Assembly (NCBI GenBank): GCA_964527235.1
Contig: CAZGNC010000001.1
Coordinates: forward strand, 83,220 to 147,219
Length of the DNA: 64,000 bases
Source of the DNA: an uncultured Candidatus Saccharibacteria bacterium
GTDB lineage: Bacteria > Patescibacteriota > Minisyncoccia > Phycocordibacterales > UBA9973
Direction of reading: 5' to 3'
Below are positions 2,155 through 28,300 of this stretch, piece by piece. Under the pieces are notes generated by a model that made no database searches, was not told where the DNA came from, and was given only the letters and a program-made list of their open reading frames with translations. Every line of letters starts with the position of its first letter. The stretch's first letter is position 1. The translations under genes were made by a program, and so were the position numbers.

Positions 2155-2212
2155 TATATAGTTAGTTTTACTTTACAATTATTTCGCAGTTGCTATACTG
2201 TTTTACATTTAA

Positions 2213-3628
2213 ATGTCAGATAAAAAAGTTCGCAAAATAAAAAAGACAAAGAAGCCAGGAAAGAATTGGAGAAAATTTTGGAAACTTGGTGCGGATGAAT
2301 TTAACACTCAATTTCTAGGTGTGAACAAAGAAGGTGAGCTCACTGCTACCGAAGGCCATCACGTTTACAACCTCCACGACTTAGCACAGAAATACGGGAC
2401 ACCTCTTCAGGTGGTTTTCCCATTTCTTATTGAAGACCGACTGAAAGATCTGATCGGTTATTTCCAAGCGTATATGAAGATATACGGTTACAAGGGTAGA
2501 TTCTCTTATCATTACCCAATGAAAGTTAACCAGAACAAAGAATTTATTTTACCTATTCTCTCTGAGGGTGGAAATCTCGAAGTGACTTCTGCTAACGAGC
2601 TTTGGCTTGTGAAGAAACTCTGGGAAGGTGAGAAATTCAACAGCAAGATACGTGTGCTATGTAATGGTCCTAAGACTGATCAGTATATAGACCTGATCGA
2701 AGAGCTTCGCGGTAAGGGTATGAGCATCGTGCCTATCATTGAGGGCTACGAAGAGATAGAAAAATTTGTTAAGTATAAGGGTGATGTCGGCGTGCGCGTG
2801 GATTTAAATATTAAAGCTGACACTCATTGGGATAAAAAGTTCGACCGTTTCGGACTTTCTGAGAAAGACGTTTTGGATTTAGGTAAGATGAAGAATCTAA
2901 AAATTCTGCACTACCACCTAGGTTCACAGATTAAAACTCAGAAAAGTATTCTAGACGGTGTGAAGCACGCGTTTAGTATTTATGTGCAGGTTCAAAAGAC
3001 TAACCCATCTCTAGACACCCTAGATATCGGTGGTGGATTCGGCGTGCCTTACGAAAAGAAGAAATTCTATACTGCGAAAGGCGTTTCAAGTAAAATCATT
3101 AAAGTTCTTAAAAATCTTTCCGATAAAGCAGGCATCAGACACCCTAACTTAGCAGTTGAGTGGGGTCAATACATCGTAGCTCCTTCTCAGGTTACTCTCT
3201 ATAAAGTAATCTCAGAGAAAGCTATTCCGAAAGCTAATGCCAAGGCCTGGTATATAGTAGATGGTAGCTTCATGAATGACCTCAAGGATACTTGGGCGAT
3301 ACATCAGAAATGGCACACCATCCCAGCGAACAACATGGACGGTGCACTTAAGACCGTATGGCTTGCAGGTAGTACCTGTGACTCTGACGATAAATACACC
3401 GCCGGCGGTAACTATATCTTGCTTCCTAAGTTGCATGAGAATAAAGATCAATACGTCGCGCTTCTAGATACTGGTGCCTACCAAGATGCGCTAGCGTCTC
3501 ACCACTGTCTGCTTGCAGCACCGATGAAATTAATCGCTCAAGATGGTACTATTAAGATAGCTCGCAAGCGCGAGACACCTGAGTCTATCGGCAAACTCTT
3601 TGGCTGGACCAACGGGGATCATAAATAA
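2213..3628 (+). CDS. PLP-dependent fold-type III decarboxylase, biosynthetic arginine decarboxylase (SpeA)-like
   Basis: HYPMKVNQN (SpeA has YPIKVNQ) and DIGGGFGVPYE motifs of the Orn/DAP/Arg decarboxylase family. It is shorter than E. coli SpeA. Confidence 0.65.
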   Translation: MSDKKVRKIKKTKKPGKNWRKFWKLGADEFNTQFLGVNKEGELTATEGHHVYNLHDLAQKYGTPLQVVFPFLIEDRLKDLIGYFQAYMKIYGYKGRFSYHYPMKVNQNKEFILPILSEGGNLEVTSANELWLVKKLWEGEKFNSKIRVLCNGPKTDQYIDLIEELRGKGMSIVPIIEGYEEIEKFVKYKGDVGVRVDLNIKADTHWDKKFDRFGLSEKDVLDLGKMKNLKILHYHLGSQIKTQKSILDGVKHAFSIYVQVQKTNPSLDTLDIGGGFGVPYEKKKFYTAKGVSSKIIKVLKNLSDKAGIRHPNLAVEWGQYIVAPSQVTLYKVISEKAIPKANAKAWYIVDGSFMNDLKDTWAIHQKWHTIPANNMDGALKTVWLAGSTCDSDDKYTAGGNYILLPKLHENKDQYVALLDTGAYQDALASHHCLLAAPMKLIAQDGTIKIARKRETPESIGKLFGWTNGDHK

Positions 3629-3642
3629 TTTTCATTTTTAAA

Positions 3643-4116
3643 ATGAAGCAATCAATATTTTTTGTAATAATAGTTACTCTGTTTGCTGTTGTGAATTTTA
3701 TATGGGTGGAGAAGAAATATACTCCCGATACACCACCTCTAACTGTACAAGAAGCGAAAATAAAATATGCAGAGCTTGCTGGTAAAAAGATTAAAGTTGA
3801 TCTAGCTCAAAGCAAAGCCGAGCAGGAACTCGGTCTTTCGGGTAGATCTTCTTTAGCTCCCGATGAAGGACTGCTTTTTGTATTCGAAAATTCTGCCCAA
3901 CATCTTTTCTGGATGAAAGATATGAAGTTCGCTATTGATATTATCTGGATAGACGCAGATGGCAAGGTTGTATATATTAAAAAATCCGCAACCCCAGATT
4001 CTTACCCTGAAGTTTTCAAACCAACTTTAAATGCGAAATACGTTCTAGAAGTTTTAGCTGGATTTTCTGATAGTAATAATCTCAAAGAGGGGGATAGTGT
4101 CCTCTTTACATTCTAG
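3643..4116 (+). CDS. DUF192 (COG1430) family protein
   Basis: N-terminal TM segment; LGLSGRSSLAPDEGLLFVF...FWMKDMKFAIDIIWIDADGKVVYI matches the DUF192 signature. Confidence 0.8.
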   Translation: MKQSIFFVIIVTLFAVVNFIWVEKKYTPDTPPLTVQEAKIKYAELAGKKIKVDLAQSKAEQELGLSGRSSLAPDEGLLFVFENSAQHLFWMKDMKFAIDIIWIDADGKVVYIKKSATPDSYPEVFKPTLNAKYVLEVLAGFSDSNNLKEGDSVLFTF

Positions 4117-4128
4117 TTCTGAAATAGA

Positions 4129-4165
4129 AAATCCCCCGCTTTAGGCAGGGGATTCTCATTTTTTC
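4129..4165. terminator. Bidirectional intrinsic terminator shared by the DUF192 gene (+) and rnpB (-)
   Basis: Hairpin AATCCCC-cgctttaggca-GGGGATT flanked by T-runs on both strands. Confidence 0.6.
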
Positions 4166-4514
4166 ATGGGTATCTATAAGCCGAATTCTGTGTTTTAGCC
4201 GAAGCTAAAAGATAGTAATTTATCTAGGCCCACACTTGCGTGGGGGCTCAAGCGATTCTCTCCAACCAAGGTCGGAGCACGATCTTGCACAGGGGTAAGG
4301 GTTTAGCCGTTTCACTCCTAATGTTGCCATCAGGACTCACCCTTGGCTTGCGCTTTGGGTGTCCCTAGATTTTCACCTCGGGACGTCTCTGCTCGCACCT
4401 ATACATTGCTGTACACGGGGGTTACCCGCTACCTGTCTCTCCGACCAAGGTCGGAGCTGTGTTCGGACTTTCCTCTATAAAGACCGAAGTCTCTACAGTA
4501 ACTATCCAATACCC
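4166..4514 (-). ncRNA. rnpB: RNase P RNA, bacterial type A
   Basis: The reverse complement reads 5' GGGUAU...AGAGGAAAGUCCGAACACAGCUCC...GGUGAAAA...GCUUGAGCC...GGCCUAGAUAAAUUACUAUC...ACAGAAUUCGGCUUAUAGAUACCC 3'. This matches the P4 halves (GGAAAGUCCG / ACAGAA..CGGCUUAU), the CUUGAGCC...GGCCUAGAU block and P1 pairing (GGGUAU/AUACCC), with covariation CCGAA/UUCGG in P4. A near-identical 21-nt hairpin (GCUCCGACCUUGGUYGGAGAG) occurs twice inside the RNA. Confidence 0.9.
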
Positions 4515-4545
4515 ACGTCTGCATCCTAGCATATTTCCCCAAAAC

Positions 4546-4574
4546 TTGCATTATTTTTAGTAATATGATATACT
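4546..4574 (+). promoter_or_regulatory. Near-consensus sigma-70 promoter (TTGCAT-17 nt-TATACT) divergent from rnpB
   Basis: TTGCAT at 4546-4551, a 17-nt spacer, TATACT at 4569-4574. Confidence 0.55.
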
Positions 4575-4580
4575 GTATGC

Positions 4581-4663
4581 GTGAGTGTGAGGTAATTCTC
4601 ACCTTTATAGAACAACATAAGTGCCGCAAGACCCCGCCGTAAGGCGGGGTCTTGTTTTTCTTT
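4581..4663 (+). ncRNA. Candidate small RNA or attenuator leader (~83 nt) between the promoter and an intrinsic terminator, upstream of the Clp-like ATPase gene
   Basis: The predicted TSS lies about 7 nt after TATACT. There is an internal hairpin GUGAG..CUCAC, then the terminator CAAGACCCCGCC-guaa-GGCGGGGUCUUG followed by UUUUUCUUU. No ORF is present. Confidence 0.4.
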
Positions 4664-4691
4664 AGGGTTCTCTATGTGTTAGAATAAATCA

Positions 4692-6581
4692 ATGCATCCT
4701 GGATTAGTGTCTTGGAAAAACTTACTCGTTTATTCTTTTAACGCTTTTTCAACTCCGCTTCTTTTGAAGACCTTGTTTGATCCTTGGAAGAGGGATGATG
4801 ACGTGGGGAGGAACTCAACATTTCTAGAAAGATTCGTCTTCGCTATTATCTCTCGAGTTCTGGGATTTATTGCTAGACTTTTCTTGATTCTTGTTGGACT
4901 TATTTTTTATTTATTGACAGTCTGCACTTTCCCTATTTTCTTTTTTGTACCTTTTAAAATCTCTACTGAGTATTTACAGAGTCTTGGGAGCGTCGGCGCA
5001 TCTCTATCTTATGGTGATACATATACACTAAATGCGCACAGTCGTGACGTGCTCTCACCGATAGCATTGAAACTTTTCGGTAAGGAGAAAACCTTTCGAA
5101 TGATCGAACGTGGGCTCGATAAAGACACCAACCACAATGTTTTGCTTGTGGGCGAGACGGGCTCTGGTAAGACTACAGTAGTGGACTATCTCGGTCGCCT
5201 AGGTCGCTCGGGGCTTTCTTTCCCAGGTATTCGTAACCATCGCGTGGTGGAGCTTTTCATGGAGGGTATAAGTATTGAGGATTTCGATCAAGCTCTTCGT
5301 GAAGCCAACTCTGCGGGCAATGTCGTTCTTGTGATTGAGAACATTCATAGTTATGAAAATATTTTCGATAGGATTATGCCGTACCTGGTGACTTCGAGTT
5401 TGGGAGTTGTGGTGACCACAGATTTTGCTAATTACGACAGAGTGCTTAAAAATTATCCAGAATTTCTTTCTAAGTTTGAGAAGGTTGATGTTCTACCTTC
5501 TAACTTCGAAGACACAGTAAATATAATTAAGAACCATGTTCGTATTTCTGGCACTAGGATCAAAGACGATGCAGTTTTAGAAATAGTCCGACTCTCTGAT
5601 AGATATATCGGCAACCAACCGCAACCACTTAAGTCACTATTGATTCTAGAAGAGCTTCGCTCGCTCAGAAAGACTATCACTATCGAAGACGTCGAGCAGG
5701 TGATTTCAGACAAAACCAACATGCCGATAGGGGCACTAAGTCGCGACGAGCGCTCTGTGTTGGTGGGCCTAGAGGACGCTATGAAGCGCAAGATCATCGG
5801 CCAGGAAGAAGCAGTTAAAGACGTGTGTAACGCCCTACAGCGCCTCCGCACGGGTATATCTGACCCTAGTAAGCCTGCAGGAAGCTTCTTGTTCTTGGGG
5901 CCTACTGGTGTGGGTAAGACCTATACAGCCAAGATCTTAGCTGAGAGTTATTTCGGTAGAAAGAATGCGATGATACGTTTCGATATGACTGAATTTTCTC
6001 TACCTGAGTCAGTGCCTACTTTCGTAGATAGACTGGCGTCAGTTATTGAAGAAGCGCCACTTTCGCTAGTATTTCTAGACGAGCTTGAGAAGTCGAACAG
6101 AATGATTCAGAATTTATTTTTGCAAATTCTAGACGAGGGGGGGCTGACTCGCGGTACAGGTAGAGAAGTGTCTTTCAAAGATGCATTAATCATCGCTACG
6201 TCTAACGCTGGAAGCGCGACAATAATACAAAATCCAAATATTGATAAGAAGACTTTGGTAAGTGATTTAATTCGCAATAATATTTTTGCGCCAGAATTTT
6301 TAAACAGATTTAGTAGTGTGGTACTCTTTGGCCCGCTTAGCGCAGATGAGGTGAGGGAAGTCGCCAAGCTTCTGCTTAACGAACTAGCTCAGAGGTTGCT
6401 TGAAGATAAAAATATAAAATTAGAAATTACCGAAGCGCTTGTAGACAAGATAGCGTTAGCGGGATTTGATTTAGAATTCGGTGCACGACCTATCAAGCGC
6501 GCAATTGAAGATATTGTAGAAAATAAAGTAGCGGACTACATAATGGCAGGGAATACTGGCGGAACTTTAAAGATTTTATAA
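4692..6581 (+). CDS. Clp/Hsp100-family double AAA+ ATPase (ClpC/ClpB-like) with an N-terminal transmembrane anchor in place of the Clp N-domain
   Basis: Two TM helices (aa ~50-95); D1 Walker A LLVGETGSGKTT; D2 Walker A FLFLGPTGVGKTYTAKILAE; LVFLDELEKS; C-terminal D2-small domain GARPIKRAIEDIV. Confidence 0.8.
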   Translation: MHPGLVSWKNLLVYSFNAFSTPLLLKTLFDPWKRDDDVGRNSTFLERFVFAIISRVLGFIARLFLILVGLIFYLLTVCTFPIFFFVPFKISTEYLQSLGSVGASLSYGDTYTLNAHSRDVLSPIALKLFGKEKTFRMIERGLDKDTNHNVLLVGETGSGKTTVVDYLGRLGRSGLSFPGIRNHRVVELFMEGISIEDFDQALREANSAGNVVLVIENIHSYENIFDRIMPYLVTSSLGVVVTTDFANYDRVLKNYPEFLSKFEKVDVLPSNFEDTVNIIKNHVRISGTRIKDDAVLEIVRLSDRYIGNQPQPLKSLLILEELRSLRKTITIEDVEQVISDKTNMPIGALSRDERSVLVGLEDAMKRKIIGQEEAVKDVCNALQRLRTGISDPSKPAGSFLFLGPTGVGKTYTAKILAESYFGRKNAMIRFDMTEFSLPESVPTFVDRLASVIEEAPLSLVFLDELEKSNRMIQNLFLQILDEGGLTRGTGREVSFKDALIIATSNAGSATIIQNPNIDKKTLVSDLIRNNIFAPEFLNRFSSVVLFGPLSADEVREVAKLLLNELAQRLLEDKNIKLEITEALVDKIALAGFDLEFGARPIKRAIEDIVENKVADYIMAGNTGGTLKIL

Positions 6582-25305: not shown

Positions 25306-28300
25306 TTATACTTCCTTCACGGCTTCAATGATGATGCTTTTTTCGCCGTTGCGATTTGAGATTTTGCCAGTGAGTGCGATGCATTTTTCAGCGACTAGGA
25401 CATCTATGAAGTCTTTGAATATAGAAGGGAAAGTCACGGCTTCTATTGATCCTGTGAAATCAGCTATTTTAATAAACGCCATGCGTTCGTTTTTCTTGGT
25501 AACTACTTGCCGTACATTTTCTATGATTCCGGCAATTGTTACCGGCAGACCGTTGCCTAGTTCTTCTTTTATTTTTTTAATATTTACATCACGTTTCTCG
25601 AGTTTTTCACGAAGCCTGTCTAGCGGGTGGCCTGAGATATATAATCCTAGAAGTTCTTTCTCCCATAGTAGCTTTTCTGCCATGCTTGAGGGGGTGCCTT
25701 CTTTGAGCTTAAAGCCCACACTACTTGTTTCTGGTAAATCTCCAAAAAGAGAAACCTGGTTTTGATTCTGCGTGCCGGATTCTTTGTTGTAGGCAAGCAT
25801 GTCCTCGAGGTTGGATAACAATTTTCCTCTTTCTTCCCAGTCATCGAAACAGCCCGATTTAATTAAAGCCTCCATAGATTTCTTGTTTAGATTTTTGTGT
25901 TTGATTCTATCTAGGAAATCAGTGATTGATTTAAATTTACCTTTTGCTTTTCTCTCTTCGATTATTGCATCAGAGATATCAGTGCCGAGATTTTTAATTG
26001 TATAAAGTCCGAATCTTATCTTTTCACTTTTGTGATCTTTGTCTACTAGAATTTCATTTCCTCCTGGTAGGCAAGTGAAGCCTCCGAAACTTTCATTGAT
26101 GTGAGGCGGAAGCACTTGGATTTTCATATTTTTGCACTCCTCGATGATCTCAGCGATTTTCTCTACGTCCCCAGATTCGGCTGTTAGTATCGCAGCCATG
26201 TATTCCACTGGGTAATGAGCTTTCATGTACGCAGTCTGATAAGCCACTCGTCCGTAGCTCGCAGCGTGGGCCTTATTGAATCCATAAGCCTGGAAAGGTT
26301 CGAAAAGTTTCCATAAATCTTCGGCAAACTTTTTCGTCTGACCATTTTTGATAACTCCTTTCACGAATTTTTCATGCTGAGCTGCCATCTCTGCTGGGAT
26401 CTTTTTACCCACAGCTTTACGGAATTTATCTGCTTCTTCCCAGTTGTAACCTGCAAGTTCGAGTGCGCAGAAAAGTAGATCGTCCTGATACACAATCAAT
26501 CCATAAGATTCAGTTAAGAAATTCTTCATTCTAGGGTCTAGATATTTTATGAGGTTTGGATTGTGTTTACGTTTGATGTATTCAGGAATTGTCTCCATTG
26601 GTCCAGGACGATACAGTGCCACCATGGCATTGATGTCGTGAATCGAAGTTGGTTTGAGTTCTTTGAGATAACGAGTCATCCCAGAGCCGTTGAGCTGGAA
26701 CAATCCTTCGGTCTGGCCCTTAGCCAATAGAGAGAAAGTTTTCTTGTCGTCCAGTGGAATTTTCTCGATGTCGATTTCAATACCGTAGAACTTTTTCACT
26801 AATCTAACTGCATCTCCGAGAATAGCTAAGTTGCGAATTCCCAAGAAGTCGAATTTTAGTAGCCCAGCATCTTCGACGCTGTACATGTCGTACTGAGTTA
26901 TTATTTTCCCACCCTTTGGGTCGAGCTGTGTTGGTACGTACTCATATAGTGGTCCTGGAGCTATAACCACACCTGCGGCGTGCACTGAGATGTGCCTTAC
27001 GCAACCTTCTAACTTCTTTGCGAGATTAATTATTTCTTTAGTGTCTTTTTCTTTTTCGTATGCTTCTTTGAGTTCTGGGACTATCTCCATGGCATGATCT
27101 ATCGTCATGGGCATTCCTTGAGACCCCATTGGAATCATTTTGGAAATTCTATCACCGATGCCGTATGGATATCCCTGAGCACGAGCCACGTCACGAACCG
27201 CACCACGAGCCATCATAGTACCGAAGGTACCAATTTGAGCGACTTTGTCAGCGCCGTATTTTGATTTCGCGTACTCAATCATTTCATCGCGACGGTTGTC
27301 AGCGTAATCCATGTCGATATCGGGAGCCGAAGGACGAAATGGGTTTAAGAATCTTTCGAACGGGAGTTTGTACTCTATTGGGTTCATGTTGGTGATGCCA
27401 ATCAGGTAAGTAACCATAGAGCCTGCCACCGATCCGCGGATTGTTGTGAGTATTCCGTTTTCTCTAGCGTGGCGCAGTAGGTCTCCCACCACAAGAAAGT
27501 AAGGGGAGTAACCTTTATCGAAAATAATTTTCAGTTCGTATTCTAGACGATCAACTATTTCTTTAGTTTCTTCTAGTCCGCGATTTTTGATACCTGCGTA
27601 TGCAAGCTGGCGGAGTTTGTCATTATAAGACATGCCTTCTTCTATCTTTAAGTCAGGGAAAACCCAACGCCCGAGATCTAGCTCGAGGTCGCACATGTTG
27701 GCGACTTTTACAGTGTTAGTTACTGCCTCGGGGGTGTCTTTGAAAATTTCGAATGCTTCCTCGGTACTAATGAAAGAGAAGTTGTCGTTTGAGAATTCGA
27801 ATTTACTTGCGTCTTTTATGTCTCCTTGAGTGTTGATTTGTAGCAGTGTTTTGTGGGCGTCGTGGTCGTCAGCACATGGGTAATGTGAGTCTTGGGTAGC
27901 TACAAGGTCGACGTTGTGTTTGTGAGCTAGCTTTATCAAAGATTCACGCACAAATGCATCCTTCTCTACAGTAGGATGTTTTTGAATTTCTATAAAGTAA
28001 TTTTCTTTGCCGAAAATATCCTGATAGTCGGTTATGATTTTGTCAGCTGCTTCGAAATCTTCACGCAGAACTGCCTGAGAGAGCTCACCACCTAAACATC
28101 CTGAAAGCGCAATAATACCGTCAGAGTATTCACGTAGGATTTCTTTATCCATTCTGGGTTTGTAGTAGTAGCCTTCGAGGTTGGCGAGTGTGACAAGGCG
28201 GATAAGGTTTTTGTAGCCCTGCATGTTTTTCGCAAGTAGGGTCAGGTGGTAGTAGCGCTTAGTGCCGTTGGCTTCAGTTGTCTTATCTTTACGACTTCCG

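Follow-up and report, generated by a model that had tools for sequence, protein, structure and literature searches.

General trans-encoded small RNAs (sRNAs), such as those of enterobacteria and Firmicutes, are about 80 nt long, are transcribed from their own sigma-70 promoter and end at a Rho-independent terminator. They comprise a 5' stem-loop, a conserved single strand and a terminator hairpin followed by a U tail; they are non-coding, and their intergenic sites are unrelated to the neighbouring genes. The element analysed here has the same architecture. In contrast to those sRNAs, it matches none of the 4227 families of Rfam at the gathering score, its host is a Patescibacterium, and it is conserved throughout a class-level clade and linked to rnpB, as would rather be expected of housekeeping RNAs. 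The latter (4.5S/SRP RNA, 6S RNA and tmRNA) share with it a single copy, a strong, constitutive-looking promoter, clade-wide conservation and a stable-RNA-gene setting. However, with ~80 nt and two simple hairpins the element is unlike 6S RNA, and it has neither the tRNA-like nor the tag-coding parts of tmRNA. Compared by eye with the consensus features of SRP RNA, it appears to have none of the domain IV motifs and not to fold into one hairpin closed by its own ends; its sole long hairpin, also judged by eye, has a GC stem of variable sequence, capped by GNRA or UUCG loops. Finally, terminator-based leaders (rnk_pseudo RF01772 and the His/Leu leaders) similarly have a promoter-proximal hairpin and then an intrinsic terminator upstream of a gene, but the present element has no leader peptide or alternative pairing, and the gene downstream of it is variable and has its own promoter.

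We scanned the window (i.e. the whole 64-kb stretch of DNA analysed) with the 4227 covariance models of Rfam 15, as had been proposed in an earlier interpretation made from the letters alone (hereafter the sequence-only reading). At the gathering score, only rnpB and two tRNAs were detected in the window; the element itself matched no family, the SRP, 6S and tmRNA models included. A permissive scan of positions 4500-4720 gave at best 32.6 bits for rnk_pseudo (RF01772; gathering score 55) and 28.6 bits for BTnc231 (gathering score 80.4), and both sub-threshold matches are driven by the terminator hairpin. SRP models were found neither in the gathering-score scan of the window nor among the 30 permissive matches. 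A full-text literature search returned no description of a small RNA of Patescibacteria (CPR), nor of an RNA like the present one. The element thus represents a new sRNA family, absent from Rfam and of familiar architecture, in a phylum that is essentially uncharted for such RNAs. Its conservation and organization indicate that it is very probably an independent small non-coding RNA gene, conserved across Paceibacteria-type Patescibacteria. Patescibacteria are extremely numerous, their genomes are tiny and few of their regulators are known. With its ~80 nt, single copy, strong promoter, invariant motif and persistent place next to RNase P RNA, the element is a tangible candidate for a function carried out by RNA in these organisms.

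Promoter, predicted transcript and homologous copies

The promoter, the 5' hairpin, the strong terminator and the minus-strand rnpB gene are all present in the sequence at the positions given by the sequence-only reading (Table 1). The transcript is predicted to start at G4581 and to end within the U run (4655-4663).

Table 1. Predicted features of the sRNA locus and its immediate surroundings, in window coordinates
Feature	Position	Strand	Description
rnpB, RNase P RNA type A	4161..4517	-	RF00010, 112 bits, full length, model positions 1-367
Putative rnpB promoter	4523..4551	-	Extended -10 TGCTAGGAT (4531-4523) and -35 ATGCAA (4551-4546), read from the sequence
sRNA promoter, -35 hexamer TTGCAT	4546..4551	+	Read from the sequence; TTGCnn exactly 17 bp from the -10 in 68/68 homologs
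sRNA promoter, extended -10 TGaTATACT	4566..4574	+	TG at 4566-4567, TATACT at 4569-4574; TG and TAnnnT in 68/68 homologs
Predicted sRNA transcript, 78-83 nt	4581..4663	+	Covariance model match at 4581-4658, 89 bits
5'-terminal hairpin	4581..4608	+	Arms GUGAGUGUGAG (4581-4591) and CUCACCUUUAU (4598-4608); loop GUAAUU (4592-4597)
A-rich linker AGAACAACAUAAGUGCCG, predicted single-stranded	4609..4626	+	Runs into GUGCCGCA (4621-4628), of which 4627-4628 lie within the terminator stem
Intrinsic terminator	about 4626-4663	+	Stem CAAGACCCCGCC/GGCGGGGUCUUG, loop GUAA (4639-4642), U run 4655-4663
Putative promoter and ATG of the Clp-like gene	4677..4694	+	TGTTAGAAT (4677-4685), downstream of the terminator and 6 nt before the ATG

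We collected 69 homologous copies of the sRNA (68 distinct) in contigs of Patescibacteria, many of which originate from the Hainich or Rifle sites. Homologs of the Clp-like protein encoded downstream provided loci from genomes (L010 and L013) and from assemblies (L082, L084, L088, L089 and L092). In this sample, all lineages with rnpB upstream of the Clp-like gene (eight lineages) were found to have the element there as well. These copies share the promoter, the GUGAGUGUGAGG and GUGCCGCA blocks, and a terminator whose complementary arms have diverged, and the Clp-like proteins that flank sRNA and rnpB are only 55-80% identical across lineages. A DNA pattern search of metagenome contigs yielded 72 further loci, which together with the earlier ones represent 64 distinct variants, all with both promoter and terminator (64/64). 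The pattern demanded GTGAGTGTGAGG, CTCAY and GTGCCGCA, so that the invariance of these blocks is partly built in, and the test of block invariance rests on the 13 independently retrieved lineages only. As an ascertainment control, an independent sample was obtained through homologs of the arginine decarboxylase encoded upstream. In all five of its loci rnpB is followed by the sRNA, with scores of 69-91 bits; the 5' block differs in three of the five, and GUGCCGCA is unchanged in all.

The covariance model built from the 64 variants gives true copies 67-104 bits, and nothing else exceeds 30 bits. It detected the sRNA once in each locus and once in the 64-kb window, and it can be used to annotate the sRNA in thousands of metagenome-assembled genomes. 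A phage origin was considered and rejected; the one IMG/VR match (L165) is a chance hit in high-GC DNA, without promoter or terminator.

The geometry of the promoter (TTGCnn, 17 bp, TG-extended -10) is kept in 68 of the 68 copies with sufficient upstream DNA. The distance between the end of the -10 and the conserved GUG is 6 nt in 66 copies and 7 nt in the other two; the conserved GUGAGUGUGAGG block thus begins 6-7 nt past the -10, and the onset of sequence conservation in the sRNA coincides with the predicted +1, G4581. By hexamer count, the promoter does not rank among the best matches of the window, as had been claimed at first: TTGCAT matches TTGACA at only three of six positions, and for this reason our consensus scan did not list it. 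It is persuasive only by virtue of the TG extension and of its conservation among homologs.

Hairpins and linker of the predicted RNA

The predicted 84-nt RNA folds with -37.6 kcal/mol, corresponding to a z-score of -6.35 relative to 200 shuffles. Covariation of its hairpins among related genomes, proposed as a check by the sequence-only reading, was found for both helices, to different extents. The terminator stem (4626-4655) has 13 pairs, including nine G-C pairs, and is followed by TTTTTCTTT up to position 4663. In the model alignment of the 69 sequences, both sides have changed in eight of 11 pairs of this helix, with 99.7% of the cells paired; hence, the arms differ in sequence among lineages and have kept their complementarity. 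The observed covariation score was reached by none of 500 shuffles, and sliding the 3' partners as a control reduced pairing to 45-58%. In loci L115, L123, L156, L118 and L117, the terminator loop carries an insertion of 12-16 nt with a shared GCUCUUGAUUYRUCUUGGGC sequence, which has the look of a conserved motif of the loop or of a small additional stem.

In the 5' hairpin, the upper five base pairs, in which GUGAG (4587-4591) pairs with CUCAC (4598-4602), are solid. The six lower ones are mostly G-U or A-U pairs, and this G-U-rich half is weak, with 70-90% pairing; the copy of the window has a U4586/C4603 mismatch. In the same alignment, 93.8% of the cells of the hairpin are paired, with compensatory changes in two pairs (pair 8, U-A to A-U in L169, and pair 9, G-C to A-U in L166) and one-sided variation in six. 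Several pairs are converted to G-U or G-C in L167. The loop measures 4 to 9 nt among the copies.

The linker between the hairpins runs into GUGCCGCA, which is invariant in 69 of the 69 copies; these comprise the 13 lineages whose retrieval did not depend on the DNA pattern. A mutual-information scan of all column pairs of the sRNA alignment returned terminator pairs only and thus revealed no pairing partner of the linker inside the RNA, no pseudoknot and no extra helix. Coupled substitutions occur in the linker (C..A versus U..U), and they are not of the pair type; ACAUAA and AUGUAU are found as linker variants. As there is no further pair-type covariation, the ~20-nt A-rich linker is probably single-stranded. 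The invariant part (AACAAYRUAnGUGCCGCAAA) would be the likeliest recognition surface of the sRNA, and it offers a specific bait for searches of targets or partners. Resemblances to a complement of the 16S decoding site, a Shine-Dalgarno-like GAGG, an AAYAAYAA-like Hfq motif and boxA were set aside as too short.

Linkage to rnpB and possible functions

In 56 of the 64 variants and in the five arginine decarboxylase loci (5/5), the sRNA promoter is directly preceded by the rnpB gene; among the lineages with sufficient sequence, it is the immediate 5' neighbour in ~61 of 64. The pair is maintained where the outer flanks differ, for instance in L088 with a ribonucleotide reductase gene upstream. 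There are three exceptions with enough upstream DNA: in L141 and L108 the sRNA follows a tRNA-Tyr gene, and in L115 a protein-coding gene. The orientation of rnpB is about evenly split (28 plus, 28 minus) between a divergent arrangement and a tandem one, with its own terminator in between. In about half of the lineages, rnpB with its promoter and a bidirectional-looking terminator is thus inverted in place between the DUF192 gene and the sRNA, e.g. L084 992-1300 (+) and L166 4442-4740 (+) versus L167 4240-4548 (-). Close relatives often differ in the orientation of rnpB, the two states being intermingled, which implies repeated inversions.

The surroundings show further synteny. The order arginine decarboxylase, DUF192, rnpB, sRNA is found in the window (2213-4116) and in L082, L084, L089 and L166-L170 (L167 4731-5642). 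Polyamine-related genes are often found just 3' of the sRNA as well, coding for agmatinase, agmatine deiminase-like, GlnA-like or deoxyhypusine synthase proteins. The pair of stable RNA genes lies within a polyamine gene neighbourhood.

In the window, the -35 hexamer of the putative rnpB promoter, ATGCAA, is the reverse complement of that of the sRNA, and hence both hexamers occupy the same 6 bp. L082 has an equal rnpB promoter geometry, with TGCTATAAT, 17 bp and ATGCAA. Binding of RNA polymerase to the two putative promoters might thus be mutually exclusive. This overlap in the divergent arrangement, together with the likeness of GTGAG-T-GTGAG...CTCAC to repeated half-sites of a repressor, would agree with a DNA-level element, that is, a divergent promoter/operator of rnpB insulated by a terminator and giving rise to no functional RNA. 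Several observations make this extremely unlikely. The element is intact in the approximately half of lineages in which rnpB is reversed and has its own terminator in between, and it is also intact after tRNA-Tyr or beside neither RNA gene. The spacer that separates GTGAG from CTCAC varies in length by 5 nt, and such variation of the loop fits an RNA hairpin and not a dimeric DNA operator of fixed spacing. Moreover, pairing is maintained by compensatory changes, and conservation runs on through the linker to the terminator.

Collectively, these features suggest how an independent sRNA gene might operate. The sigma-70-type promoter (TTGCAT, 17 bp and TG-extended TATACT) is positioned for a start at G4581, and the transcript would consist of a hairpin beginning at +1, then ~20 nt of A-rich single strand ending in GUGCCGCA, and lastly the GC-rich intrinsic terminator, which would release an RNA of ~78-83 nt at 4658-4663. 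The two terminal hairpins may protect the ends of the RNA, and the linker would be read by a partner, either another RNA through base pairing or a protein. A cis coupling to the Clp-like ATPase gene is not supported, as this gene appears to use its own extended -10 and to be leaderless, and the sRNA would act in trans. It is thus pictured as a free-standing, trans-acting and probably abundant RNA.

A promoter close to the consensus, a single copy and a setting next to rnpB or tRNA-Tyr suggest constitutive, high expression, as of a housekeeping RNA or one of global reach, and speak less for a niche regulator. One specific version of this proposal is that the sRNA is an unrecognised housekeeping RNA of Paceibacteria, acting as a component or a regulator in 5' maturation of tRNAs by RNase P, leaderless translation or ribosome biogenesis. 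It fits the placement next to rnpB or tRNA-Tyr, the near-consensus promoter and the invariance of GUGCCGCA; we regard it as rather unlikely. A narrower role as an accessory RNA of RNase P or of tRNA maturation, whether it contributes a part in trans, acts as a regulator or mimics a substrate, appears more doubtful still. The linkage speaks for it, as rnpB adjoins the sRNA in ~61 of 64 lineages in either orientation, even when both outer flanks have changed, and as the two exceptions with an RNA gene as a neighbour have tRNA-Tyr. Nevertheless, rnpB is a complete type A RNA (model positions 1-367), and neither contiguous complementarity nor intermolecular covariation with it was detected. In addition, the arginine decarboxylase and DUF192 genes are often syntenic too, so that the linkage may be in part inherited gene order. 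A split RNase P with one helix provided in trans was considered and deemed unlikely, since the alignment of rnpB covers the type A model completely. A link with RNase P or a housekeeping role, if true, would make the sRNA of greater interest.

We searched for partners and targets of the sRNA. Comparison of its alignment with a MAFFT alignment of 49 cognate rnpB sequences showed, column by column, Watson-Crick-consistent covariation in scattered single columns only. The complement of the 5' 12-mer matches the window at three sites, one of which is the sRNA itself, for 3.2 expected, and the complement of the linker matches only itself. RNAduplex predictions between the linker and 57 gene starts gave a best value of -18.6 kcal/mol, equalled by 0.7% of random windows (~0.4 expected), at a site located upstream of the likely promoter of its gene. 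Hence, no significant complementary target site was found within the window.

The Clp-like gene and leaderless starts

The gene downstream of the sRNA in the window codes for a 629-residue Clp-like protein with AAA_2 and ClpB_D2-small domains, which has hundreds of homologs of the same length with 65-80% identity, labelled Patescibacteria, Paceibacterota or Nomurabacteria. Its ATG (4692-4694) begins 28 nt past the U run of the terminator, in agreement with the gap of about 30 nt in the sequence-only reading. An extended -10 of the form TGnTAnAAT is located 6-7 nt before the ATG of the Clp-like gene in 19 of the 19 distinct orthologous loci inspected, and this spacing is kept in the Nomurabacteria loci devoid of the element (L001-L009, L011 and L012). 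As the TGTTAGAAT motif of the window lies 6 nt before the ATG, its +1 would fall on the A of the start codon, and the position of this putative promoter suggests a leaderless mRNA of the Clp-like gene, with transcription independent of the sRNA.

These data bear on the other proposal of the sequence-only reading, namely that the terminator conditionally stops transcripts from the promoter at 4546-4574 before they reach the Clp-like gene, in the manner of an attenuator or a riboswitch-like leader. The element is on the same strand as the Clp-like ORF and 28 nt upstream of it, the same arrangement occurs in 13 lineages, and the weak sub-threshold, terminator-driven Rfam matches are to leader families. 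However, among the 55 loci with enough downstream sequence, a Clp-like gene follows the element in only 13, the downstream gene is a different one in 42 and it is convergent in 10. These other genes code for GlnA-like proteins, agmatinase, UvrB, small coiled-coil proteins and others, with agmatine deiminase-like genes among the convergent ones. The Clp-like gene has its TGnTAnAAT motif 6-7 nt before the ATG, also in orthologs without the element, and a read-through RNA would have a 111-nt leader devoid of a Shine-Dalgarno sequence. The arms of the terminator vary freely, which leaves no possibility of a conserved antiterminator, and the mutual-information scan showed no alternative pairing. 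Thus, we found no constant association with a same-strand gene, no sign that such a gene depends on the promoter of the element and no conserved antiterminator. Given the variable downstream gene and the Clp-like gene's own promoter, we rejected an attenuator, which we consider very unlikely.

The independent sRNA, which had also been put forward from the sequence alone, is strongly supported: the element has its own promoter (68/68), conservation that sets in at +1, a covarying terminator of its own and no conserved reading frame. It occurs in 69 contigs regardless of the downstream gene, and conservation of promoter and terminator whatever gene follows argues for this interpretation.

Leaderless starts do not seem to be restricted to the Clp-like gene. 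Among the ORFs of the window with 60 or more residues, 15 have an extended -10 (TGnTAnnnT) 6-7 nt before their ATG, as compared with 0.16 expected from Markov shuffles. They include sites at 4677-4694, 17021, 21000, 28550, 30011, 33104, 51981, 52419 and 58034 on the plus strand, and at 27154, 24689 and 18597 on the minus strand. Leaderless mRNAs thus appear to be common in this Patescibacterium, and their extensive use matters for the annotation of gene starts in such organisms.

The sRNA itself might then be a leaderless mRNA for a micro-protein, with the GUG at +1 as a start codon (GUG AGU GUG AGG, i.e. MSVR...). In its favour, the transcript begins with GUG, leaderless translation seems common in this genome, and the first four codons are conserved as nucleotides. 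However, past codon 4 the frame gives a product of four residues, of ten residues or one that continues through the terminator, depending on the length of the loop; variation of the synonymous type is absent, and the start codon is buried within an 11-bp hairpin. This makes a micro-ORF highly improbable. The statement that the transcript has no ORF was too strict in one respect, as a 21-codon ORF can be read and there is a GUG at the predicted +1, but it holds in that neither frame is conserved. The 21-codon ORF runs from an ATG at 4578 to a TAA in the terminator loop and is missing in L010 and L013. The aligned copies share no conserved reading frame, and a small ORF was therefore rejected.

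Two further features were observed around Clp-like genes. In L081, the contig of the closest relative (80% identity of the Clp-like protein), which stops at the start of the Clp-like gene, a gene for a large serine recombinase (Resolvase/Recombinase/Zn_ribbon_recom; 2210-3372, minus strand) is located just 3' of the Clp-like gene. Lastly, the Nomurabacteria loci L001-L007, which do not have the sRNA at this place, have in common another conserved block of non-coding sequence, which precedes the ATG of the Clp-like gene by ~40-170 nt (~2830-2960 in locus coordinates) and reads ..AACTTCATAATATATGGAATATTCCTGTGAACCGACTTAAATTAA..AAATTTCAACTTTTTCAGTATAACAGAT..TTTTGTCTA; it could be another regulatory element or RNA.
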